Shown here: positions 2,165 to 36,133 of the stretch, piece by piece | How the letters are laid out: every line of letters begins with the position of its first letter | How positions within the stretch are numbered: position 1 is the first letter of the stretch | NCBI GenBank assembly: GCA_965214835.1 | Contig: CBDCCK010000002.1 | Location: 864,001-928,000, forward strand | DNA from: Nitrosopumilaceae archaeon | Lineage (GTDB): Archaea > Thermoproteota > Nitrososphaeria > Nitrososphaerales > Nitrosopumilaceae | DNA length: 64,000 nt | Reading direction: 5' to 3' | Notes under the pieces: model-generated | What the model was told of the DNA's origin: nothing | The model's input: the letters and a program-made list of their open reading frames with translations, nothing else | Database searches by the model: none | Position numbers and translations under genes: made by a program

Positions 2165-3112
2165 GTGACTGTCAAGTATGGCCTGCTTTTGGCTGCCTTC
2201 ATGGCAATTGTGATCCCCTCCGCATACGGCGAGACGCTCAGGCAGGCCATGGAGGGGGGGGTTGATGTCACCATCACATACCCCGAGTCAGTGATTTCCG
2301 GGGATGCCTTTTCAATCACCATACTAGTTGAGAACAACGGATGGGAGGATAAGCAGGACATACGGTTTGACTTCAGGCCAAGCTCCGCGCTGGCTGCAAG
2401 CCAAGACAGGCTGGTCATCGATAGAATTGCAGAGGGTGGATCGTTTGGTGAGACGATTGGCTTTGACGCATTTTCAGAAAGTGGGAATGACTATTTTCTA
2501 AACATAGGGTATTCACAGGTTTTGGTGCAGGACAATGAGACTCCACTGGAGCCGTTTACGACAGACTTTGCAATTCCAATTACGGTCAAAGACGAGCCCA
2601 GAATCCTGATACGGACCACCACGCCGGAGTCAATTTTCACCAATGCGGAGTTTCCTTTTGAGGTAGAGGTTCTCTCTGAAGACATTGACCTGTATGATGT
2701 AAACGTAAGAATCATTGCGCCCAGGGATATCGAGTTCAGGGGGGAGACACTGCACACCTTTTCAAGCGTGGATAAAAACGAGGCGGTAAACATCAGGGCA
2801 GAGATAATCACGCCAAGAGAGGAGGTAAATACGCAGCACAGGCTGCCGTTTGAGGTAATAGCCACGTACAGGGATCATCGGGATGACGAGAGGACAGAGT
2901 CGAAAATCGTCCCGCTGGTATTGCGTCCGCGAACATTTATGGAGGTGACGACTGACGGGGGGATCTGGGTGGGCAGTTTCTTTATTGCGCCGTACGTCAG
3001 CCTGGGTACCATCATAGGGATTCCGGCCGGGGCCATCCTGTCAGTACTCATAAGAAGGGCCCAAAACAACCCAAAAAAGCGCACCAGGGGAAAAGGTAGG
3101 AATAGCCCATGA
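2165..3112 (+). CDS. Exported membrane-anchored hypothetical protein (Ig-like/S-layer-associated type)
   Basis: Signal peptide, acidic beta-rich body, C-terminal TM helix with basic tail. Confidence 0.7.
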   Translation: MTVKYGLLLAAFMAIVIPSAYGETLRQAMEGGVDVTITYPESVISGDAFSITILVENNGWEDKQDIRFDFRPSSALAASQDRLVIDRIAEGGSFGETIGFDAFSESGNDYFLNIGYSQVLVQDNETPLEPFTTDFAIPITVKDEPRILIRTTTPESIFTNAEFPFEVEVLSEDIDLYDVNVRIIAPRDIEFRGETLHTFSSVDKNEAVNIRAEIITPREEVNTQHRLPFEVIATYRDHRDDERTESKIVPLVLRPRTFMEVTTDGGIWVGSFFIAPYVSLGTIIGIPAGAILSVLIRRAQNNPKKRTRGKGRNSP

Positions 3113-4647
3113 TAAGACTCTCGATAGTCCTGCTAATGGCAGTCTCGCCCGGCATCATTCATGAGGCATGCGGACACGGAGTGGGCGCCGAGACACTGCC
3201 TCCGCAGAGGCTGGGAGACAGGCAGGTCTTCATCGAAGTCAATGCGGTAAGCACAGAAGACCCCGGCATTGATCAGCAGCTTACCTTCCGGCTGATGGAT
3301 GCGCAGACAAGCGAGGCCGTAGGGGGCGTGACGTACGAGATCAAGGCATCAAAGCAGGATATCGTTTTATTTGATGAAAGGTTTGAGAGCGGATCCGGCA
3401 CCCTGGCAGTTGACTTGGTGCACTCGGACTCTGGCGGGATCAGTGTGGAAAAGCGGGCCTCGGGAATATTCGGGTTTATTTCGGGCGATACGGATCTGGC
3501 AAGGGTGACAGGCCCCTACTTTGACTATGGCGGACTGTACCGGTTCGAGATAGGGGTTCTGACCGCAGGCGGCTTTTCAAACAGCCTTGATCCGCCGCTG
3601 GAGTGGAGCTCCGGGGTCTCCATAGCAGACACGACAACCTATGATATCGAGGATGCAAACTATGGAAGGCAGACCCTTACACACATCTCGTACTACGACG
3701 TCATTGAGGACTTTAGCTACGATCCCCTTACAAGCAGCGTCTCGTTTGAGATGCCCTTTGATGGAAGCCTTGACTCGATAAACCAGACCTCCGTCGTCCA
3801 TGAAGAGTTTACAGTGTCAAAGGAGTTCGGGGATCTGATGGTCTCAGACATGTCAGCCTCCGTCAACGGGGTCGTTATGCCCCAGGAGGCGGTTCAGATT
3901 GATGATTTTACAGAGGGCAGGAGAATCGTTCATCTGACCGTCGTCAAGAGCAATATTTTGGAGCTGTACGATCAGGGCAGGTTTCGGGAAGACAGGATGA
4001 GCTTTGTGATCGGCCCGTCACAGGATGGGCTGCCCCTTGCCACCGTGACAAGGAACGGCCAGTTCAGGGTAGTCATGGAGACGGATCCGGCGGAGGCCAG
4101 GTCGGGGCAGGAGCTGGAGGTAAGATACAAGCTGCTTGATGTGTTTCTCAAGGATCGCCCCGTCAGGGTAGACTATGACCTGTATGTGGTGCAGGAAGAC
4201 AGGATGCTGTTTTCCACGAGGGGGGCAAGCAATGACGAGGCCGGAAGGTTTGACTCTGTCAGGTTTTCTGTCCCGGAGCAGTCTGCGGGAATAATCTATG
4301 TTCATTTTGAGAATCTTGCCGGAAACTCGCTGGCATCGGCAAAGCTGCCCATTGCCGTAGACAGGATCCCGCCCACGGCAGCCAGCATTCCGGAATGGAT
4401 AAGGGACAATGCAGGGGCCTGGTCTGCGGGAATTATTGGCGACGAGGAGTTTGTTGCGGGAATCCAATGGCTGATCTCAAAGGACGTCATAATGATTCCA
4501 CAGACACAGGCGGCCGCCGGCCCGGCAGGTGCGATTCCGTCATGGATAAGGTCTGCCGCACATGCGTGGTCCATGGGAATGACCAGCGACGAGGAGTTTG
4601 TAGCCGGCATTGAATTCCTCGTCTCCAACGGGATAATCAGGGTCTGA
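3109..4647 (+). CDS. Secreted protein with C-terminal IPxWI..A.aW repeats (thaumarchaeal 'peptidase'-type surface protein)
   Basis: Signal peptide; two repeats IPEWIRDNAGAWS..DEEFVAGI / IPSWIRSAAHAWS..DEEFVAGI. Confidence 0.75.
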   Translation: MIRLSIVLLMAVSPGIIHEACGHGVGAETLPPQRLGDRQVFIEVNAVSTEDPGIDQQLTFRLMDAQTSEAVGGVTYEIKASKQDIVLFDERFESGSGTLAVDLVHSDSGGISVEKRASGIFGFISGDTDLARVTGPYFDYGGLYRFEIGVLTAGGFSNSLDPPLEWSSGVSIADTTTYDIEDANYGRQTLTHISYYDVIEDFSYDPLTSSVSFEMPFDGSLDSINQTSVVHEEFTVSKEFGDLMVSDMSASVNGVVMPQEAVQIDDFTEGRRIVHLTVVKSNILELYDQGRFREDRMSFVIGPSQDGLPLATVTRNGQFRVVMETDPAEARSGQELEVRYKLLDVFLKDRPVRVDYDLYVVQEDRMLFSTRGASNDEAGRFDSVRFSVPEQSAGIIYVHFENLAGNSLASAKLPIAVDRIPPTAASIPEWIRDNAGAWSAGIIGDEEFVAGIQWLISKDVIMIPQTQAAAGPAGAIPSWIRSAAHAWSMGMTSDEEFVAGIEFLVSNGIIRV

Positions 4648-5268
4648 TCATCTTCGTCTTATCGCTACTGCCGAGGTGGCAATTGCGGCTATCCCGATTC
4701 CCACCGCCACATGCTCGATTCCAAGACCGGGCTTGGATGATTCAAGCCTTTGGATGGAGTTTTTGATTTCGGCCAGCTCGTCTTCAAAATTTTCATGCTC
4801 TGCCATGTTTGGATCCTCGGGCAGGGGGGGGAACTGGATGTACTCCTTGTTTTCTATTTTTGGGGCATGCAGTGACAGACTGACCGGGGTATCATTGATC
4901 TTGCCAAGAACGTTGACCTGGTAATATCCGGGGTTTGTGGGCTCCACAAGGGCAAAGTACTTTCCGGGTATGTGATCCGGCTGCAGGGGAAGGGTGACCG
5001 TAGTCCCGTTTTGTACCAGCTGGATCTTGAGATCCCTGTACAGCAGGGGTATGCCGTCCTCAAAGTCCTGCTCCTCGGGGGGCAGCGACGGATCCAGCGG
5101 ACTGACAAACAACTCAATCCCGTTTGGGGTGTTTGAAACCGCAGGCTCGTTCATCCAGCCTATCTGGATGCGGTACTCCCCCACATAGTCAATCTGATGT
5201 GCGTGGGCAGCAGGCACCAAGGTCACGAAAAGCAGTGAAAGCACGACAGGCGCGGTCTTTGGCTTCAT
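4648..5268 (-). CDS. Exported hypothetical protein with C-terminal coiled coil and TM anchor
   Basis: Signal peptide ending AHA-H, IGWMNEP motif, C-terminal TM. Confidence 0.7.
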   Translation of the reverse strand: MKPKTAPVVLSLLFVTLVPAAHAHQIDYVGEYRIQIGWMNEPAVSNTPNGIELFVSPLDPSLPPEEQDFEDGIPLLYRDLKIQLVQNGTTVTLPLQPDHIPGKYFALVEPTNPGYYQVNVLGKINDTPVSLSLHAPKIENKEYIQFPPLPEDPNMAEHENFEDELAEIKNSIQRLESSKPGLGIEHVAVGIGIAAIATSAVAIRRR

Positions 5269-5337: not shown

Positions 5338-6783
5338 CTAGGCATCGGTGTACATGGAGACCTCCCACGGCGTGGGGGTCTGGGCAAATGCGACGTACTC
5401 TTGTTGCTTCAAGTCAACGTATTTCTCCAAAAAGTCCCTTGTGAACACCTCCTCAAGAAACGACGAGTCGCCGCCTAGTGCGTCCAGTGCGCCCTTGAGC
5501 GATACGGGCAGCGAGCCAATCCTGTATTCGCGCTTTTTTTCTGCAGATAGCTTGTAGACGTTTTCCTCGACCGGATCGCCCGGATCCAGCTTTCGCCTGA
5601 TTCCGTCCAGTCCGGCCAGCAGCAGGGCGGCCTCCAGGAGGTAGATGTTTGCAGTCGGATCCGGGACCCTGTATTCGATCCGCTTGCTCGTTTCCTGGTT
5701 CCTATAGTACATCGGAACCCTGATTGCCGCAGAGCGGTTTCCCATCCCCCAGCACACGTTGACAGGCGCCTCAAAGCCAGGAACCAGCCTCTTGTAGGAG
5801 TTTGTCGTGGGGTTTGTTATCGCACACAGTGCCGATGCGTGCTCCAGTATTCCGCCAACGTAGTACCTGCCGATCTGACTAAGCTGCGCAACGCTGTCGT
5901 CTGGATCATACATGGCATTGGTGCTGTTATTCCAAAGGCTCTGATGGGTATGCATTGCAGACGCATTGTCCCCAAAGATCGGCTTGGGCATGAACGTCGC
6001 CACCTTGTTTCGCTTCTTGGCCTTGACCTTGACGACGTTTTTGACCGTAATAACATTGTCTGCCATTCCCAGCATCTCATCGTATGCCAGGTTGATTTCA
6101 CACTGGCCGGAGGTGGCTACCTCGTGGTGTTCTGCCTCGATTTTGATTCGGAAGTACTTGTAAAGATCATCGCAGATGTCCTTTCTAAAGGTCTCAAGCG
6201 TGTCCTTTGGCTGGGACGGATAGTATCCCTCCTTGATGTCTATCGCGGTGCTGATGTTTCCCTTGGCCCACGGGGACTCCTTTGACTCGATAGAGTATCC
6301 CGAGCCGCCTCCCGAATGCGTTGCAGCATAGGGCGACGGGTATACGTTGATGTTGTCAAAGACAAAGAACTCAATTTCTGGCCCCCAGTTGGTATGGGTC
6401 AGTCCGAACTCCCCTAGCCTGCCTGCAGCCTTGTGGGAGATCCCCCTAGAGTCCCTGTTGTACCTGGATTCCTCCGTGGTGTTTCCCTCATAAAGATCAC
6501 AGATGATTCTCGCGTTTTTCCTGCGGCCGTTGTCATATTCGGGGGGCAGGATTCTAAACGTGGATGGATCCGGCTTTAGGATCATGTCTGACTTGTTGAT
6601 GGATTTAAAGCCTGCAATCGAGCTGGCATCAAGCTTTTCCAGGCCGTTGGTGAAGCTAGAGTCGTCAATGGCATAGCTGGGCATTCCCATTCTGTGCAGC
6701 TCGCCAAAGATGTCTACGAACCAGAAATCAATGAATACTATATTCTCGTCCTGAATCGTTTTGAGGACACCGTCGACATTCAA
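5338..6783 (-). CDS. glnA: Glutamine synthetase type I paralogue (divergent substrate loop)
   Basis: GPEIEFF, HHEVATSGQCEI, FMPKP, NSYKRLVPGFEAP, NRSAAIRVP, IEYRVPDP. Confidence 0.92.
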   Translation of the reverse strand: MNVDGVLKTIQDENIVFIDFWFVDIFGELHRMGMPSYAIDDSSFTNGLEKLDASSIAGFKSINKSDMILKPDPSTFRILPPEYDNGRRKNARIICDLYEGNTTEESRYNRDSRGISHKAAGRLGEFGLTHTNWGPEIEFFVFDNINVYPSPYAATHSGGGSGYSIESKESPWAKGNISTAIDIKEGYYPSQPKDTLETFRKDICDDLYKYFRIKIEAEHHEVATSGQCEINLAYDEMLGMADNVITVKNVVKVKAKKRNKVATFMPKPIFGDNASAMHTHQSLWNNSTNAMYDPDDSVAQLSQIGRYYVGGILEHASALCAITNPTTNSYKRLVPGFEAPVNVCWGMGNRSAAIRVPMYYRNQETSKRIEYRVPDPTANIYLLEAALLLAGLDGIRRKLDPGDPVEENVYKLSAEKKREYRIGSLPVSLKGALDALGGDSSFLEEVFTRDFLEKYVDLKQQEYVAFAQTPTPWEVSMYTDA

Positions 6784-6856
6784 TGAGATAGATTGCCTTC
6801 CGGCCTACTAATGCTAGCAAGTAAGATAGTTTTAGCTATGTTGTTAAGAGTAAAAG

Positions 6857-8212
6857 TCAGTCTTTTTTCAGGCTTTTGGCGTGGCCGTACTTTTGCTCCA
6901 GTTCATCGGCAAAGAAGAACCTGTCCCCGTAGGCAGGCTTTAGGTCATCAAGCCAGATGGCATTCTCGTCGTATTGGGCATAAAACGGCCTTTGAACCCA
7001 GTCGGGGTTTCTTCCCTGAATAAACCTAAACGACATCACCCTTTTGCCGTTGATCGTGGGGGTTCCGTCAATCATGACCTTGCCTGGCGTGGCAGACATG
7101 CTGGGCCCCCTGACGGTCCTGCACAGACCGCTTGTCCTCATGTAGGCGCTCCTGAAGATTTGGTGTGCCCTGACCAGGGGGACTCCAAAGTAGTGTTGTG
7201 CGCCGGTATCGCGGACGACGAACATATAGTACGGGACGCACCCAAGCTGGACCTGTCTTCTCCACATTTCTGACCACATGTCGGCATCGTCGTTGATATG
7301 GGCAAGCAGCGGGGACTGGGTCCTGATTTCCGCGCCGGTCTTTCTGACCTCCCTTATTGCGGCCTTTACGGAGCCCGTTGACAGCTCGACGGTGTGGTTG
7401 AAGTGGGCCATAAATGCCAGGTGTAGTCCCCTTTGGGTCACGCGGGAGAACAGCTCCAGCATGTCAGAGGCATCGCCGTCTGTCAGGAATTTGTACGGCC
7501 AGTATGCAAGGGATTTTGTCCCGATTCTGATGGTCCTAAGGTTTGGAATGTCGGCCTCCAAGAGCGCATCGACGTAGGTCTTGAAGATCTTGGCCTTCAT
7601 GATCATGGGATCCCCTCCCGTAAATAGAATGTCGGTGATTTCAGGATGCTCGGTTACATACCGGACAAGCTCGTCGCTTTCCTTCATCGCAAACTTCATT
7701 TCATCCATCCCTACAAACTGCGGCCATCTAAAGCAGAAACTACAATAGGCATGACACGTCTGGCTTTGGCTCGGGAAAAACAGGCAGGTCTCCTTGTACT
7801 TGTGCTGCATGCCGTACAGCCTTGTCCCATCGGACAGGGAGGGCACGTTTAGCTCCATCTGGCCCGCAGGATGGGGGTTCAGCTGCAGGCGGATTTCGTT
7901 TGCAACCTCGGCAATCTCTTTTTTATCGGCGCCTTTTTTCAGGGTTGCGGCCATTCGTTCAAAATGCTGCGGCCTCAGCATCCCCTTTTGCGGGAATGTC
8001 AGGACATAGATTGGATCGTTTGGGATGTTGTTCCAGTCAATCAGCTGCTCTACGACATAATTGTTGGCCTTGAAGGGCAGAACGTTGCCGACAACCTCCA
8101 TTTCAAACTGCCTTTCCTCAGAAAGGCCCTGCATCTGCGGCAGATCTCGAAAGTTTGCAAGCGTGTATGATTTTAGCGATGGCGATTCATCCCAGACGGT
8201 TTCTAGAGCCAA
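6857..8212 (-). CDS. KamA-family radical SAM amino acid 2,3-aminomutase
   Basis: CHAYCSFCFR (CxxxCxxC), LFTGGDP, IRIGTK, HFNH, QSPLL. Confidence 0.88.
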   Translation of the reverse strand: MALETVWDESPSLKSYTLANFRDLPQMQGLSEERQFEMEVVGNVLPFKANNYVVEQLIDWNNIPNDPIYVLTFPQKGMLRPQHFERMAATLKKGADKKEIAEVANEIRLQLNPHPAGQMELNVPSLSDGTRLYGMQHKYKETCLFFPSQSQTCHAYCSFCFRWPQFVGMDEMKFAMKESDELVRYVTEHPEITDILFTGGDPMIMKAKIFKTYVDALLEADIPNLRTIRIGTKSLAYWPYKFLTDGDASDMLELFSRVTQRGLHLAFMAHFNHTVELSTGSVKAAIREVRKTGAEIRTQSPLLAHINDDADMWSEMWRRQVQLGCVPYYMFVVRDTGAQHYFGVPLVRAHQIFRSAYMRTSGLCRTVRGPSMSATPGKVMIDGTPTINGKRVMSFRFIQGRNPDWVQRPFYAQYDENAIWLDDLKPAYGDRFFFADELEQKYGHAKSLKKD

Positions 8213-8373
8213 CTAGTACAGTCAGTCCCTAACCCTTGTTAAAGGTTACAGGCACAAAATCGCCCAAAATGCGGCTTTTTTGCCCAAAATCAGTAAAAAA
8301 AATCTGATACTATACAACAACTAGTGTTAACCATGACACCTAACTTTTGCCTTGGGAGACAGATTGTAGGCAC

Positions 8374-10137
8374 ATGGCAGAAGACGAGATTATAGGCGTA
8401 GTATCAAGCCAGGTAGGGCAGTTTGATACGTTGTCGCAGCTCCTGGCATCGTCAACGTCGCTTCAGATGGCATTCATCATCCTGGTTGCGGGAATCATAG
8501 CGATCGTCCTAGTCTACCACAAGTTTTCAAGCTGGGTAAGGTCGCAAAGGTTTTACTATCACAGGCCGCACCTGTCCAAGTTTGTCCGGGTGGCCATTCT
8601 TCCGTTTTTTGCCATAGCCCTGATCTCGTCTACCAATGCCTACATCCAGACGTTTGAGCTGTTCGGCGAGGACGCAGAGCGCATGGCAGTCCTGGAAAGC
8701 GACGCAATGACGGTAAGCGAGACCTTTGCAAAGATCCTCAATACGATGAATGTCCTGGTCATCGGATACACCATAGCGCACCTGATCCCCGTGGTCATGG
8801 CCAAGCGGGAAAAGTCGGTCTTGGAGAGGGAGGACTTTGAGGAATGGAAGGAGATGAGGGGGTTTCCCGACGATGACGGCGACGTGTTTCACAGGTTCTA
8901 CAGGTGGGTCGCGCCCACGCAGGTACCCGAGGACATTACGGGGGAGGAGTTCGAGGAGAGACTGAAGACCGAGAAGGGGAGGAGGTACCTTGAGGAGTAC
9001 AGGACTACAAAGGGGATTCCGATAGGAAGCTTTGAGGAGCTGGTAAAGGACCCGTTTGAGGAGTGGAAGAAAAACGAGAGGATAAAGTACCAGAAATACT
9101 TCAAAGAGTGCGTCTCGGGGGATAACCAGGCGGGCAAAAAACTGCGCACGGGACAGGACGTCGAGGAGATCTATCCCATAGATGTCTGGAGGGATGAAAA
9201 GAGAATCGGTGGGTTTGATTCCATCAATCCGGGAGCAAGGCCCCCTGGACATGCATTGAGAAAGAGAAAGGATCTGCCAAAGTCAGTCTCCCAGATCCTG
9301 CCACTCGGGATCTTTGTTGCAGTGGCAATCGGCGTAGTCAGCTGGTGGGGAATCGATCTGGTGGTGCTGGCAACGGCCACCGGCGGACTTGCCATCGGCA
9401 TAGGCTTTGCACTGCAGGAGACGATGCAGAACTATTTTGCATATGTGCTGATCAGAAAGGACAAGATTTTTGTCGAGGGGGATCGCGTCAAGCTGGATAC
9501 GGGGTACAACGGATATGTGCACAAGATTACCCCGAGGGTCACATACCTGCGTCACGCATTAAACGAGTCGTTTGCAATAATTCCCACAAGGCAGCTGGTA
9601 AACGCGCAGATAGTCAACTTTTCAAAGGACATCAAGATGGTTCCGGCCGTCGTCGAGGTAGGGGTGTCATACCTTAACAATCCCAGGCAGGTCGCGGCAA
9701 TCCTGGTCAAGGTCGGAAAGAAGGCGATGAAGGAGGTCAGGGACACAAAGGGCAGGCATCTGGTCAGGCAGGCCAGGTGCCCGTATCTGGACGAGAACAG
9801 GCCAAGCTGCGGATGTGACAAGGATATCCACACGGATATAAACCAGCCAGTGGTCCGCTTTACAAAATTCAACGACTCCTCGCTGGACTTTACGCTGTGG
9901 GTGTATGTGAGGGACTATGGCTCCCAATACAAGACCAAGACTGACATGCTCATGTACATCTACGACGAGTTCAAGAGGAACGATATCAGAATTCCATGGC
10001 CGATCCGTACGGTCTACCAGGGAGACGAGAGGCGGGAGGCCGAGGAGATCGGCTCGCTTGACGCCCAGAGGAAGGCAATCATCGACGAGTACGGGCTAGG
10101 AGACATCAACCGCGGGGATGCAGACGCAGGCGACTAG
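8374..10137 (+). CDS. MscS-family mechanosensitive channel with large insertions
   Basis: GLAIGIGFALQETMQNYFA, GDRVKL, GYVHKITPRVT, VGVSY, FNDSSLDF, IPWP. Confidence 0.9.
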   Translation: MAEDEIIGVVSSQVGQFDTLSQLLASSTSLQMAFIILVAGIIAIVLVYHKFSSWVRSQRFYYHRPHLSKFVRVAILPFFAIALISSTNAYIQTFELFGEDAERMAVLESDAMTVSETFAKILNTMNVLVIGYTIAHLIPVVMAKREKSVLEREDFEEWKEMRGFPDDDGDVFHRFYRWVAPTQVPEDITGEEFEERLKTEKGRRYLEEYRTTKGIPIGSFEELVKDPFEEWKKNERIKYQKYFKECVSGDNQAGKKLRTGQDVEEIYPIDVWRDEKRIGGFDSINPGARPPGHALRKRKDLPKSVSQILPLGIFVAVAIGVVSWWGIDLVVLATATGGLAIGIGFALQETMQNYFAYVLIRKDKIFVEGDRVKLDTGYNGYVHKITPRVTYLRHALNESFAIIPTRQLVNAQIVNFSKDIKMVPAVVEVGVSYLNNPRQVAAILVKVGKKAMKEVRDTKGRHLVRQARCPYLDENRPSCGCDKDIHTDINQPVVRFTKFNDSSLDFTLWVYVRDYGSQYKTKTDMLMYIYDEFKRNDIRIPWPIRTVYQGDERREAEEIGSLDAQRKAIIDEYGLGDINRGDADAGD

Positions 10138-10149
10138 CCTGCAGGCGGT

Positions 10150-11448
10150 ATGAAAATGGCCCTCACAGAACACATCAGGAGGAACTTGTGGCTTCAGGTG
10201 GTAATCTCCCTGCTTGCCGGACTGGGGGTGGGCGCGATCCTGGGAGGCGGCCCGGGTGCCGGGATAAGTGACGACGTCATGGATTACCTGTCGTCGTATC
10301 TGAAGATTCCGGCCAACATATTCTTGAGTGTGATCATGATGATCATCGTCCCGCTGATTTTCACGTCAATCGTGGTGGCCATTACCAACCTGGGTGCAAA
10401 GGAAAGGCTGAAAACCCTCGGGCTGGGAATCGGCGCCTACTTTGTGATAACGACTACAATTGCAATACTGATAGCGGTATCTCTTGCGACGGTAATAGCC
10501 CCCGGAAGCATCCTGGATCTGACGTCACTTCAGGAGACCCATGACCTCTCCGAGGAGGATCTGCGGGTCACCGACGGCTTTTCAATAGACGACATTCCAA
10601 GTGCCGTATCGGGCATAATTCCAAGAAATCCAATATCCTCCTATCTTGAGGGACAGATGTTTAGCATTCTGGTGATGGCAGTCATCGTTGGCCTGTCAAT
10701 GGCGGTTCTTCCCAAGGAGTCGGTGAGGCCGCTGCTGAGTCTGCTCGAATCGATCCAGCGGGTAACACTGCATATCCTGCTGGTTGCAATGAAGATCGTG
10801 CCGTTTGCGGTTTTCGGCCTGATAGTCGGCATGGTTGCAAAGGCGGGGGTGGAGACGATGGGCGGACTGGGGGTATACATGGGTACGGTGGTCGCCGGCC
10901 TTGGAATCATGCTGCTGGTATATGCGGTGATCCTGAAGCTGGTGACAGGAAGGTCGATATCGTCCACATTCTCAAGATTCCGCAATCCTCAGACCCTGGC
11001 CTTTTCAACGGCCAGCTCGATGGCCACGATGCCGGTTACGCTAAAGACTGCAGAGGAGGATCTGGGGATAGATGCGCGGGTGTCAAAGTTTGTAATCCCG
11101 CTTGGAACCACCGTGAACATGGACGGCACCGCGCTGTACCAGGTCATAGCAGTCTTCTTTCTGGCACAGCTGTTTGCAATCGAGCTGAGCATGGTATCCA
11201 TGCTGGTAATCATCATAACCTCGCTACTGGCATCCATCGGGACCCCGGCCGTGCCCGGTGCGGGGGTGATTGTCCTGTCGACCATACTCATAACGGTAGG
11301 AATCCCCCCGGTCGGAATCCTGCTGCTGCTTTCGGTGGACAGAATTTTGGACATGATCAGGACCATGGTCAATGTAACCGGTGATCTTACGGCATCCTGT
11401 GTGTTTGACAGGGTGGCAAGAAGGCAGTTTGCCGGATCTGCACGCTAG
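10150..11448 (+). CDS. Dicarboxylate/amino acid:cation symporter (GltP/GltPh family)
   Basis: AFSTASSMATMP, PLGTTVNMDGT, VDRILDMIRTMVNVTGD. Confidence 0.95.
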   Translation: MKMALTEHIRRNLWLQVVISLLAGLGVGAILGGGPGAGISDDVMDYLSSYLKIPANIFLSVIMMIIVPLIFTSIVVAITNLGAKERLKTLGLGIGAYFVITTTIAILIAVSLATVIAPGSILDLTSLQETHDLSEEDLRVTDGFSIDDIPSAVSGIIPRNPISSYLEGQMFSILVMAVIVGLSMAVLPKESVRPLLSLLESIQRVTLHILLVAMKIVPFAVFGLIVGMVAKAGVETMGGLGVYMGTVVAGLGIMLLVYAVILKLVTGRSISSTFSRFRNPQTLAFSTASSMATMPVTLKTAEEDLGIDARVSKFVIPLGTTVNMDGTALYQVIAVFFLAQLFAIELSMVSMLVIIITSLLASIGTPAVPGAGVIVLSTILITVGIPPVGILLLLSVDRILDMIRTMVNVTGDLTASCVFDRVARRQFAGSAR

Positions 11449-24586: not shown

Positions 24587-26047
24587 TTGCCGTATAAAGT
24601 CAGTCATGGAAAGCCGATCCAGATCACATACTCCCCCGACGAGGTGTTTTCAAAGATCCAGCACGACGAGATAAAGTTCATCGACCTGCAGTTTACCAGC
24701 CTGACTGGAAGGTACCACCACACCACAATCTCCGCAGACACGTTTTCCCCCGAGCAGATGAGGGACGGGCTTCCAAAGCTTGACGGCTCCTCCATCGTGG
24801 GCTTTACGAGCATTGATGACTCGGATCTGATTCTAAAGCCGGATCCAAACACGTATGCAAAGATTCCCTGGTATACGGAGAACAACACCGGCAGGCTAAT
24901 CTGCGATGTCTACTGGGGCGAGGACAGGGGACGGCTCTCAAGGGATCCCAGGGGAATAGCGCAAAAGGCAGAGGGACACCTGAAGGCGCAGGGCTTTGAG
25001 ACCAGCAACTGGGGGCCGGAGGTCGAGTTTTTCGTATTCGACGAGGTTCACTGGGACGTGCTGACCCCGTACAAGGGCCAGTCATACAGCATCGAGTCCA
25101 AGGAGGCCCCGTGGAGCCAGGAGGGAAAGGGCTATCCGATGGGGCTGCAGGAGGGATACTATCCAAGCACGCCTTCAGACACCCTCTCGCCGTTTAGAAA
25201 CGAGTGCGTCAACATCCTAAACGAGGAGTTTGGGATTCTGTGCGACAACCACCACCACGAGGTCGCCACGGCAGGACAGTGTGAGATCGACATCAGGTAT
25301 GATCACCTGACCAATGCTGCAGATGCGGCACAGTCCTACAAGTTCGTCGTAAGGAACATTGCCCAAAAGTACGGAAAGATTGCAACCATGATGCCAAAGC
25401 CGATCTCGATGGATTCGGGCTCCGGCATGCACACAAACGTGAGCCTGTGGAAGGGAAAGCACAACGTGTTCTATGATCCGGATGCCGAGGACGAGCTGAG
25501 CCAGCTGGGAAGATACTTTTGCGGCGGAATCATCCACCACGCAAAGGCGCTGTCTGCGATTTCCAATCCGACGACCAATTCGTATCACCGGCTGGTTCCG
25601 GGCTATGAGGCCCCCGTATACATCGCATGGAGCGCAAGCAACAGATCCGCGATTGTCAGGGTTCCAAAGCACTTCAAGGGAGCAGGCTATGCGCATTTGA
25701 AGAGGCTGGAGTTCCGGGCGCCGGATCCCTCGGCCAACCCATACCTAGTATTTGCATCGGTCCTGTCGGCCGGCCTGGACGGGGTCAGAAAGAAGATGGA
25801 TCCGGGCGACCAGGTCCGCGAGGACATATTCAAGATGACAAAGGCCGAGAGGGTAAGGCGCGGAATCGGCGTCCTGCCTGCAAGCCTGGGCGAGGCGTTA
25901 GACGAGCTGGAGAGCGACAGGGAGTTCCTGCTTCCAATCTTCACAGACGACGTAATTGACACCCTCATAGCAATCGAGAGAAAGGAGCAGCGCGAGATCT
26001 CAATCAGGCCCCATCCGCACGAGTTTTACCTGTACTTTGACGTATGA
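24587..26047 (+). CDS. glnA: Glutamine synthetase type I
   Basis: LDGSSI, GPEVEFF, HHEVATAGQCEI, GSGMH, RLVPGYEAP, LEFRAPDP. Confidence 0.95.
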   Translation: MPYKVSHGKPIQITYSPDEVFSKIQHDEIKFIDLQFTSLTGRYHHTTISADTFSPEQMRDGLPKLDGSSIVGFTSIDDSDLILKPDPNTYAKIPWYTENNTGRLICDVYWGEDRGRLSRDPRGIAQKAEGHLKAQGFETSNWGPEVEFFVFDEVHWDVLTPYKGQSYSIESKEAPWSQEGKGYPMGLQEGYYPSTPSDTLSPFRNECVNILNEEFGILCDNHHHEVATAGQCEIDIRYDHLTNAADAAQSYKFVVRNIAQKYGKIATMMPKPISMDSGSGMHTNVSLWKGKHNVFYDPDAEDELSQLGRYFCGGIIHHAKALSAISNPTTNSYHRLVPGYEAPVYIAWSASNRSAIVRVPKHFKGAGYAHLKRLEFRAPDPSANPYLVFASVLSAGLDGVRKKMDPGDQVREDIFKMTKAERVRRGIGVLPASLGEALDELESDREFLLPIFTDDVIDTLIAIERKEQREISIRPHPHEFYLYFDV

Positions 26048-33832: not shown

Positions 33833-34195
33833 ATGTCGGGGTTTGGGTCTTCTAAATTTAATAATATCATAAGACAAATTATAGAAAAATCGTTGTTTAC
33901 AGAGCGACAAATTGAAATTATTTTAAATCAGAAGAACCTTAGTGAGTCCAAGTTTTCCATAACAAAGGGGGCGTACTACAGGCAGGTAAGCCAGTCCAGG
34001 AGCAAGTTGGTGGGTCTTTACTATTCAATCATTCTTTTGCGCGGACTAGGCGTGCTCTTGCCTGATGACATTGATGTGATAACAAGGCTTTCGGAACAGG
34101 TTTCCGTGATAAAAGATGGTGATGTTTTCCCTGAAAGAGAGGAGGAAGTCATTGATGTGATAGACAGGGTGGTCAGGCAGGCCTGCAATATGTGA
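33833..34195 (+). CDS. Hypothetical protein, probable HTH
   Basis: SLFTERQIEI...ITKGAYYRQVSQ. Confidence 0.7.
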   Translation: MSGFGSSKFNNIIRQIIEKSLFTERQIEIILNQKNLSESKFSITKGAYYRQVSQSRSKLVGLYYSIILLRGLGVLLPDDIDVITRLSEQVSVIKDGDVFPEREEEVIDVIDRVVRQACNM

Positions 34196-34318
34196 TGGTT
34201 GGAGAGTTTGTGAATAAAATTTCGTGTTTGTTGTGATAATGTGGTGGTGTTTTTCTTTACCCATTAGGTAAATAATGTTTGTCCATATATGATAAATCAC
34301 CATGCATGATGTAGGATA

Positions 34319-34909
34319 GTGATGTTGGTAGAAATTCCCGATCCTGAAGTGATATTTGTGGTGGTTGTCGCGTTTTTAGTGGGGTTGGGTGGATTTTATG
34401 CATACTATAAAATACGGCCCTATGTTAATCTGAAGAGGGTGGAAATCGATCCCAGCCAACTGGCGCGCCTAGAGTATTACGAGCGTCAACTAATCGATAT
34501 GAAAATACGCCTAGATGCCCTAGGGTTGGATGATGGTGTTGTAAAAAAACCTCAAAAAGAACCAGGGGTCGAGGTGGGGATCAGGCAAGCTTCACAGGTT
34601 ATAGAAGATGTCCCACAAGTGAAGGTGGAGGTTGAAAAACAATCATCCCAGGCACAAAGGCTGCCCAACATGACCTCAAATGACGCCGTAGATTATGTGT
34701 TGCAACTAATCACAGACAAATCAATGACGTCACGTGATATACAAGTCACACTTGGAAGGAGTAGGGAGCACACTTCCAGGTTAATGAAGAGGTTGTTTGA
34801 GGGGGGTTATGTTGATCGAAATGTTAGTACAAAACCATATACTTACTCAATTACCGATAAAGGTAAGGAAAGAGTTGGTTTGGTTAAAGGTCCCATAACT
34901 GCTACATAA
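34319..34909 (+). CDS. Membrane-anchored winged-helix (MarR-like) protein
   Basis: N-terminal TM, coiled coil, C-terminal TSRDIQ..LGRSREHTSRLMKRL..GYVDR..YSITDKG. Confidence 0.8.
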   Translation: MMLVEIPDPEVIFVVVVAFLVGLGGFYAYYKIRPYVNLKRVEIDPSQLARLEYYERQLIDMKIRLDALGLDDGVVKKPQKEPGVEVGIRQASQVIEDVPQVKVEVEKQSSQAQRLPNMTSNDAVDYVLQLITDKSMTSRDIQVTLGRSREHTSRLMKRLFEGGYVDRNVSTKPYTYSITDKGKERVGLVKGPITAT

Positions 34910-35119
34910 CCCCGGTTTTTTATAATTTTCCAAGTTCCACACAATGGGGTGGGGGGGTGATGTGTCAGCCAAAAACACAGGTTAGAGAACCAAAACTCAC
35001 CAGACCCTGCAGGGTTGCCCCTTTGTTGTGGTTTGGTTTGTTAGTTTTTCTTTATATTTTATTTAAATTTTTAAATTGTAAAGTTTTATTAATTATAATC
35101 ATTATAAATTATAATAAAA

Positions 35120-35281
35120 ATGTCTGCAGGTGGTTTGGAGGTTTTGGTAAAGATTTCATCGGTTGGTACCATATCACTACCAAAACAGTTTCGAAAGTAT
35201 ATGGACATGCAAAAAGGTGATTATGTTAAAGTTGTTATGGAAAGAGACCGTCTAATTATTAGAAGGGTTGTAATTAGTTAG
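35120..35281 (+). CDS. AbrB/MazE/SpoVT-family DNA-binding protein (53 aa, below the ORF-track cutoff)
   Basis: MSAGGLEVLVKISSVGTISLPKQFRKYMDMQKGDYVKVVMERDRLIIRRVVIS fits the AbrB pattern. Confidence 0.85.
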   Translation: MSAGGLEVLVKISSVGTISLPKQFRKYMDMQKGDYVKVVMERDRLIIRRVVIS

Positions 35282-35665
35282 GTGGGGTTTTTGGCCCGTT
35301 TTTGTTATTTGATAGGTCCATTCCCTGCCTGATTTAACCCTGTTTACCCTGCCTTTTTCATTAAATCTTGATAAATATGTGGAAATTACACTGAGTTTGA
35401 TCGGCTCGTTATACTCATCCTCATATTTTTCAAGTAGGTCTGTAGAGGTGAATTTTCCTATTAAATAGAATTTGTTAATAATATTCCAGATTTTACCCCC
35501 AATAGAATCTAGGTTCTGTGGTTGAGATTCCTGTTCAACATCCATTATACCCATCGAATCCAATAATTTGAAAAGGCGTTCTCTGGTTATGTTTCCCTCT
35601 AATTTAAGATGAAGGGGATTACCATCAGAGTCTACCGTACCTATACTAATCTTATTTCTTACCAT
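35252..35665 (-). CDS. Winged-helix DNA-binding protein
   Basis: FTSTDLLEKY...LSVISTYLSRF..KGRVNRVKSGREWTY. Confidence 0.75.
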   Translation of the reverse strand: MVRNKISIGTVDSDGNPLHLKLEGNITRERLFKLLDSMGIMDVEQESQPQNLDSIGGKIWNIINKFYLIGKFTSTDLLEKYEDEYNEPIKLSVISTYLSRFNEKGRVNRVKSGREWTYQITKTGQKPHLTNYNPSNN

Positions 35666-35699
35666 ATGTGATCAATAAGGATTAATTATTAACCATTCA

Positions 35700-36133
35700 A
35701 TAGGTCTATAAAATTTTGTTAATAAACAGGGTTGTTAATATTGACTGCCTAGCCCACGCCTAGGGGGTTTTTTATTATTAACAATTTTTTAAAAAAAACT
35801 ACCAAAAATCCCTTGTTTTCATGCCTGGAGTGGAAATAAAGGGGTCAAAATTTGTATATTAACCATGTTAAGGGGTTGTTTAACACCTAGAGTGGAAATA
35901 AAGGGGTCAAAATAACCATTTTTTGTCAATTTTAACACCAGATTAACCTATCTGTCAAGCCAAAAAACCACCCACACACCTTTATTTCCACTCCTTTTTT
36001 TTTCAAATTTTTTTTAAGAAACTAAATCTAACCAAAAATAATTAATCATATACTGAATTTGAGTTGTTGTTTGATTCTATACAGTTCTAGGAGAGGTATT
36101 GTGGTAACTAATGGAAATAAAGGTGTGTGGGTG
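35700..36133. other. Probable replication origin (oriC) with ORB-like repeats and AT-rich unwinding element
   Basis: GAGTGGAAATAAAGGGGTCAAAA twice (35824-35850, 35886-35912); perfect 22-bp inverted pair 35969-35990 / 36112-36133 around T/A runs; directly upstream of cdc6. Confidence 0.85.

Follow-up and report, generated by a model that had tools for sequence, protein, structure and literature searches.

Beta-glutamic acid is the most abundant identified metabolite of Nitrosopumilus maritimus SCM1, where it reaches 730 mM, and no gene is named for it in the part of that report considered here (Heal et al., PMC8269262). In this study, we analysed a stretch of 64,000 nucleotides (the window; positions 864,001 to 928,000 of the forward strand of contig CBDCCK010000002.1, assembly GCA_965214835.1) from a Nitrosopumilaceae archaeon, in which a KamA-like radical S-adenosylmethionine (SAM) gene lies between a glutamine synthetase (GS) paralogue, GS1, and a divergent gene for a long MscS-like channel. 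We consider it reasonably probable that this cluster is a beta-glutamate osmolyte module of the Nitrosopumilaceae, made up of a glutamate 2,3-aminomutase and a release valve. A preliminary description of the locus had proposed an osmolyte system with uptake, isomerisation, amidation and release; the present analysis retains its pairing of beta-glutamate synthesis with a release valve and drops its uptake by a symporter, and the statement there that beta-glutamate is an archaeal osmolyte agrees with the pool documented in N. maritimus (PMC8269262). Full-text literature searches returned no paper that assigns a beta-glutamate synthesis gene, or links an aminomutase, to these archaea, and the aminomutase matches for them concerned cobalamin, haem, salinity stress or other unrelated contexts.

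Several described systems resemble parts of this locus. The ablA-ablB operon of methanogens follows the same logic, a KamA-type mutase followed by a charge-neutralising enzyme for osmoprotection, but the window has other substrate-site residues, a GS paralogue as the proposed second enzyme and a channel gene, and no ablB was found. The clostridial glutamate 2,3-aminomutase (Eam; model TIGR04368) shares the proposed reaction and the superfamily, while by model score (78.2 bits against a cut-off of 650) the window protein falls in a separate clade, and Eam serves fermentation rather than solute synthesis. A glutamate 2,3-aminomutase of methanogens has reportedly been described, to judge by the title of Tunckanat et al. 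2022 (Biochemistry 61:1077); it is reportedly likewise archaeal, with beta-glutamate as an osmolyte. In incednine biosynthesis, feeding and an idnL4 knock-out have shown that L-glutamate is turned into beta-glutamate, the role assigned to the radical SAM enzyme IdnL4, with 3-aminobutyrate as the later product (PMC11284099; PMC9230918); according to the former of these, IdnL4 activity in vitro has not been observed to date. Among glutamine synthetases, a type I enzyme of Methanohalophilus portucalensis makes beta-glutamine from beta-glutamate, and it is the sole GS named in the passages considered of a review that also recounts older nuclear magnetic resonance (NMR) work arguing against a mutase route in methanogens (PMC1224877). 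Here, in contrast, a paralogue with a predicted activity of this kind, GS1, stands beside a universal GS2.

The window is part of a genome (G000) of 3.22 Mb in two contigs, 99.95% complete. The principal features are listed below with their positions in the window; the four adjoining open reading frames (ORFs) have the coordinates given for them earlier, so that the layout claimed then, an aminomutase gene upstream of and co-oriented with glnA and divergent from MscS, agrees with the sequence.

5338..6783, minus strand: GS1, type I glutamine synthetase paralogue (TIGR00653 GlnA, 514.8 bits)
6857..8212, minus strand: KamA-like radical SAM, pyridoxal phosphate (PLP)-type aminomutase, 451 aa (TIGR00238, 121.7 bits; CHAYCSFC)
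8374..10137 (ORF from 8347), plus strand: long MscS-like channel, about 587 aa (PF00924, PF21082)
10150..11448, plus strand: SDF (GltP/DctA-type) symporter (PF00375, 369 bits)
24587..26047, plus strand: GS2, second glnA, housekeeping type (TIGR00653, 538 bits)
8213..8373, no strand assigned: putative divergent promoter region, its role judged from position (70 aligned intergenic regions)
6784..6856, minus strand: spacer between aminomutase and GS1, with a TATA-like box and a conserved upstream element (56 aligned spacers)

The KamA-like aminomutase and its relatives

The genome has no KamA-family gene other than the KamA-like gene. The cluster motif CxxxCxxC is present in its product as CHAYCSFC, and the longer form CHAYC[ST]FCFR occurs in all 80 sequences of a set from ammonia-oxidizing archaea (AOA; 79 orthologues and the window protein). 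An AlphaFold (AF2) model built from a 20-sequence alignment (predicted local distance difference test, pLDDT, 90.5; predicted template-modelling score, pTM, 0.90) matched lysine 2,3-aminomutase (LAM, 2a5h) with Z 34 and a root-mean-square deviation of 3.7 over 343 residues, the next match having Z 15. Since model residues 1-437 superpose on residues 6-404 of the 2a5h chain, the full LAM architecture is present and the N-terminus is not extended. The methanogen glutamate 2,3-aminomutase, in contrast, is said to carry an extension of about 160 residues, which the window protein, aligning with LAM from its first residues, does not have.

From the PYY strand on, the alignment to 2a5h is gap-free with an offset of 41, and the HMMER alignments end at LAM residue 323/324. 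Arg162 is aligned to LAM Arg134, which we take to be the ligand of the alpha-carboxylate, and Arg334 stands in the column of LAM Asp293 both in the single-sequence alignment and in the profile alignment (posterior about 0.9). The pair G377-K378 is invariant in 20 diverse sequences and lies 14 residues past the Cys aligned to LAM C323. Within the AOA set, the Arg-Asp strand motif PYYMFVVRDTG was found in 77 of the 80 sequences and the Ser...Gly-Lys motif VRGPSMSATPGK in 73. Neither of the Asp residues that bind the lysine epsilon-amine in LAM (D293 and D330) is kept, their places being taken by Arg334 and, by spacing, by Ser371, both conserved in AOA. A cationic Arg where LAM holds the epsilon-amine argues against lysine and for a substrate with an acidic side chain. 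Eam, too, is reported to replace both lysine-binding Asp, the first with a basic residue. Judging by these distal-site residues, the KamA-like enzyme is most plausibly a glutamate 2,3-aminomutase and not a lysine enzyme; the same residues, together with the relatives that share them, lend indirect support to the glutamate activity that had been suggested for it.

Searched against 1.84 billion representative proteins, the aminomutase had 3654 matches with E <= 0.001 and 327 with E <= 1e-30. Of the relatives, 45 (mostly full-length, 399-882 aa) were scanned, and all fell short of every curated KamA cut-off; they thus form a separate clade. Homologues with 45-54% identity and about 90% or more coverage were found by tblastn on plasmids of actinomycetes and Burkholderiaceae, and a homologue 55% identical, in an uninformative context, in a Phycisphaerae genome reached via the long relative P0229; the Arg and Ser signature recurs in each of the eight bacterial homologues compared (45-55% identical). 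A quick maximum-likelihood tree with 57 rows grouped the archaeal sequences in a single clade (SH-aLRT 96), which is nested among sequences bearing the Arg-Asp signature; a group of 13 rows, 12 of them without that signature, was set apart with support 100. Cluster look-ups and the protein Atlas returned generic names and mostly bacterial taxa for the aminomutase.

The homologue of Streptomyces sp. NBC_00334 (48.7% identical) is placed between type I polyketide synthase (PKS) genes, and its neighbours encode a proline-iminopeptidase-family hydrolase (255 bits against 168), a class I/II PLP enzyme and an adenylating enzyme. In gene composition, which is the only basis on which the two are equated, this cassette matches the incednine starter-unit cassette. 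The archaeal enzyme belongs to one clade with this cassette homologue and shares with it the Arg and Ser that stand in for LAM D293 and D330. Other homologues occupy nonribosomal peptide synthetase (NRPS), siderophore-like or catabolic-looking contexts. On an Amycolatopsis sp. AA4 plasmid (L103, 8014-20218), an aminomutase homologue lies together with a Glu/Leu-type dehydrogenase, a PLP enzyme, a CoA transferase, two MaoC dehydratases and two CoA ester lyases, a gene set resembling a breakdown pathway for such a substrate as a C5 dicarboxylic amino acid. In the metagenomic protein P0128 (882 aa), an N-monooxygenase-like domain (9-420) is fused to an aminomutase of this clade (443-865).

Conserved linkage, distribution and the channel

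Among 80 named Nitrosopumilaceae loci, 69 had enough upstream flank and 71 enough downstream flank to be scored. The divergent long MscS gene was present in 64 of the 69 and a co-oriented GS1 in 53 of the 71, the conserved order being PRPP (phosphoribosyl pyrophosphate) synthase <- MscS <- divergent -> aminomutase -> GS1 -> secreted protein. This arrangement is not due to chance, and the conserved linkage that had been assumed for MscS and GS1 is seen both in these loci and in co-occurrence at the genome level. A first survey found the aminomutase in 20 of 24 family genomes and no KamA relative in 16 representatives of other families of the order. The larger family sample comprised 151 genomes, each at least 90% complete, and includes the unpublished G098 and G169, the count for genus g6 depending on G098; its descriptive counts were as follows.

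KamA-like aminomutase: 109 of 151 genomes, 22 of 24 genera
Long MscS: 91 of 151 genomes, 90 of them also with the KamA-like gene
GS1: 79 of 151 genomes, 78 of them also with the KamA-like gene
All three genes: 69 of 151 genomes

The sole exception to co-occurrence is G074, in which the genes concerned are at contig ends, GS1 being 150 nt from a contig start. The aminomutase is patchy in genera g6, g9, g11, g15, g17, g20 and g41, and in two of these the aminomutase-positive and GS1-positive genomes are the same (8 of 17 in g17, 3 of 5 in g15). The locus is present in all 17 sampled genomes of g14 and in many named Nitrosopumilus records. Genus g39 holds a short aminomutase remnant with two stops (G082:C10:28206-28298) and an aminomutase gene with an in-frame TAG (G123:C29:5411-6724), which point to ongoing gene loss.

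The channel gene is the sole PF00924 gene of the genome. Its product passes PF00924 (28.5 bits against 20.2) and PF21082 (35 against 21), and scores far under the cut-offs of the MscS, MscK and MscM equivalog models. While the ORF is open from a TTG at 8347, the ATG at 8374 is the likely start, since relatives align from about residue 10 and several have a stop just upstream. Only aminomutase-bearing genomes, G074 excepted, were found to have the long form (about 575-610 aa); other lineages have short forms. MscCG of Corynebacterium is a glutamate-exporting channel of the MscS family. Like that family, the window channel has the beta-domain and C-terminal domain, and efflux of an anionic amino acid is proposed for it; it differs in its length of about 590 aa, in a highly charged cytoplasmic insert of about 170 residues (about 150-310) between membrane segments, and in a Cys-rich insert. 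The latter, at about 495-515 of the C-terminal domain, contains three cysteines and may be a metal or redox site.

Alignment of the intergenic regions revealed a conserved box at 8233-8252 on the minus strand, with a TATA-like core that lies some 29 nt upstream of the aminomutase start, and a second conserved box about 30 nt before the MscS ATG. The aligned spacers showed a TATA-like box about 30 nt before the TTG start of GS1 and, as a separate feature, about 45 nt of non-coding sequence upstream of GS1 that are conserved throughout the Nitrosopumilaceae. Judging by these elements, GS1 probably has its own promoter, and the element of about 45 nt may be an operator; because a TATA-like box lies about 30 nt before each start, transcription of the three genes is probably separate and leaderless. 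A scan for sigma-70 promoters and terminators, a method not meant for archaea, gave sites no more numerous than in shuffled sequence.

The preliminary description had also counted the symporter beyond the channel gene as a member of the module. It belongs to the SDF family and is the sole SDF gene of the genome, and it does not reach the GltP equivalog (NF008440, 210 bits against 638). However, an SDF gene occurs in only 1 of the 80 named loci and in 6 of 41 relatives, adjoining the cluster in G000 and G002 alone, that is, among the closest relatives of the window, and lying elsewhere in G007, G017 and G024. On this distribution the symporter was rejected as an uptake arm; it is a lineage-specific insertion outside the conserved module.

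Taken in order, the proposed module would work as follows. In the first step, which is the firmest, Arg162 would bind the alpha-carboxylate of glutamate, the aldimine would form on Lys378 and Arg334 would hold the gamma-carboxylate, while the amino group migrates from C2 to C3 to give beta-glutamate, an anionic compatible solute balanced by K+. In the second, suggested by linkage and family function, the long MscS-type channel would vent the solute upon hypo-osmotic shock. In the third and most tentative, GS1, predicted to be a fully competent ligase that uses ATP and ammonia, would amidate beta-glutamate to zwitterionic beta-glutamine and so tune the charge of the solute pool, nitrogen assimilation being left to GS2.

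The glutamine synthetase paralogue and the rival explanations

GS1 is over the GlnA cut-off (429.15 bits) and 45% identical to GS2. In Salmonella numbering, the equivalents of E129, E131, E212, E220, H269, R321 and E327 are invariant in all 52 GS1 sequences, and so are those of R339, E357, R359, D50, S53 and Y179; these we take to be residues of the metal, glutamate, ATP-arginine and ammonium sites. Since GS1 retains the ammonium site, an amide product is favoured over a gamma-glutamyl-amine. A further 36 positions are invariant in GS1 and unlike the GS2 type, including G51A, H209E, A216S, G267A, Y326F and three residues past the Glu327 flap, and of these changes G51A, G267A, Y326F and those at positions 342-346 are near substrate loops. 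By analogy with the M. portucalensis enzyme, GS1 may amidate beta-glutamate to beta-glutamine. A match of the GS2 type (43-51% identical to GS1) was found in 25 of 25 family genomes searched, and this type is the only one in those other-family genomes that had a match (14 of the 16 searched), while no GS1 was found in representatives of 16 other families. Its presence in every family genome searched marks GS2 as the housekeeping enzyme, the role already suggested for the second glnA.

A number of points weigh against the beta-glutamate module. The functions of the aminomutase, the channel and GS1 are predictions from sequence, fold and linkage. The KamA-like protein is under the curated cut-off even of the KamA family model TIGR00238 (199.2), and that of the clostridial glutamate model is likewise not reached. 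Ser371 and Lys378 are equated with LAM D330 and K337 by equal offset, using LAM numbering that we presume to be correct, and the C-terminal 97 residues alone gave no alignment to LAM or another aminomutase structure. Since members of the clade occupy NRPS, siderophore-like and catabolic contexts, the substrate may vary within it. Compared with IdnL4 as described in the literature, the archaeal gene lacks a decarboxylase or PKS partner and is paired with a channel and a GS paralogue; in the absence of such a partner, beta-glutamate would be the end product. The measured beta-glutamate pool comes from SCM1, whereas the locus was seen in other genomes, and the low-salinity genera Nitrosarchaeum and Nitrosotenuis also carry the aminomutase gene. 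The co-occurrence counts are descriptive only and overstate the evidence, because related genomes are not independent. For the amidation step, G265A was rejected as a marker of GS1 specificity, being shared by 4 of 6 sole GS genes of other families, and GS1, lacking in 31 of the 109 KamA-positive genomes and preceded by a conserved promoter-like element of its own, thus appears dispensable and separately controlled; the literature search found no report of beta-glutamine in these archaea.

The rival explanations differ in how much of the module they would replace. Databases, and the source records, name the gene 'lysine 2,3-aminomutase', which would imply beta-lysine made for an osmolyte of the N-epsilon-acetyl-beta-lysine type, and the best equivalog score of the protein is indeed that for AblA (TIGR03820, 103.5 bits), ahead of EpmB (100.6 against a cut-off of 369) and the arginine mutase model (92 against 600). 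However, the AblA score is far under its cut-off of 525.4 and both lysine-binding Asp are replaced, by Arg and, going by spacing, by Ser; moreover, ablB (TIGR03827) had no match anywhere in the genome, while the identical search matched six control genomes, two of them above the cut-off, so that the earlier remark on the lack of an adjacent ablB extends to the whole genome. A lysine enzyme is thus very improbable. Production of another beta-amino acid, or use of another substrate, for a purpose other than osmoprotection, with the linkage to MscS and GS reflecting something else, is also unlikely, though less remote. It would accord with the failure of the protein to reach any curated model, with the varied natural-product contexts of its relatives, the N-monooxygenase fusion among them, and with the fact that enzymes of this clade have yet to be assayed in vitro. 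On the other hand, the substrate-position residues examined are identical in the archaeal enzymes and the homologue of the beta-glutamate-route cassette, the cationic Arg argues for an acidic side chain, a pool of 730 mM must have a source and the genome has no other KamA-type gene, and this gene co-occurs with the sole MscS of the genome.

A third alternative touches GS1 alone and would leave the aminomutase and channel reading intact: GS1 may be an ordinary alpha-glutamate isoenzyme, for example one that steadies glutamine or assimilation during the drain on glutamate, or one that is differently regulated. The score of GS1 for GlnA, the retention of all checked catalytic and substrate residues, its promoter-like element, its absence from 31 of the 109 aminomutase-bearing genomes and the lack of any report of beta-glutamine in the literature searched are all in keeping with this, and we would give it only a little under an even chance. 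Against it stand the near confinement of GS1 to aminomutase genomes (78 of 79) with none in the other families, the universal GS2 that already covers assimilation, and the 36 paralogue-specific positions, several of them beside substrate loops. Returning to the beta-glutamate module, its fullest form would be a two-step, charge-tunable solute system in which an oxygen-tolerant mutase of a third, bacterial-type clade, a dedicated beta-glutamine synthetase and a clade-specific MscS vent are encoded by three genes gained or lost together; this we put forward tentatively, as a possibility clearly short of an even chance.

Neighbouring genes and biological meaning

The gene downstream of GS1 (4648..5268, minus strand) is a doubtful member of the module. 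The translation (206 aa) indicates a signal peptide, a C-terminal hydrophobic anchor and, in the mature protein, an N-terminus that begins close to a His-rich stretch; the protein would thus be secreted and C-terminally anchored, and it had no Pfam match. In the majority of the 80 loci this gene comes next after GS1 or the KamA-like gene, with 44-85% identity. The earlier observation that no ligase for elongation factor P (EF-P) is adjacent holds as well, the neighbours being two proteins without a Pfam match and a PRPP synthase. Two adjoining ORFs (315 and 512 aa) at 2165-4647 on the plus strand had no Pfam or NCBIfam match, and the 512-aa ORF is kept near the cluster in the two closest relatives. 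Ectoine synthase (PF06339) had no match in the genome, a result that is uninformative because the control genomes likewise had none. A search with Rfam found a single tRNA in the window and no match within 6700-8450. The G+C content at 34001-36000 is 0.38, against about 0.53 elsewhere, and may mark an island.

If the gene is correctly assigned, metagenomes and transcriptomes could be used to track the carbon and nitrogen held in the beta-glutamate pool. The assignment would also point to a radical SAM aminomutase at work in an obligate aerobe, and such an aerobe-compatible aminomutase is named as a missing part in the portion considered of a preprint on synthetic carbon fixation. In addition, it would open a direct test of a dedicated beta-glutamine synthetase. 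Should the proposal prove true, the three co-gained and co-lost genes would serve to trace, in genomes, a major pool of organic nitrogen in the deep ocean.

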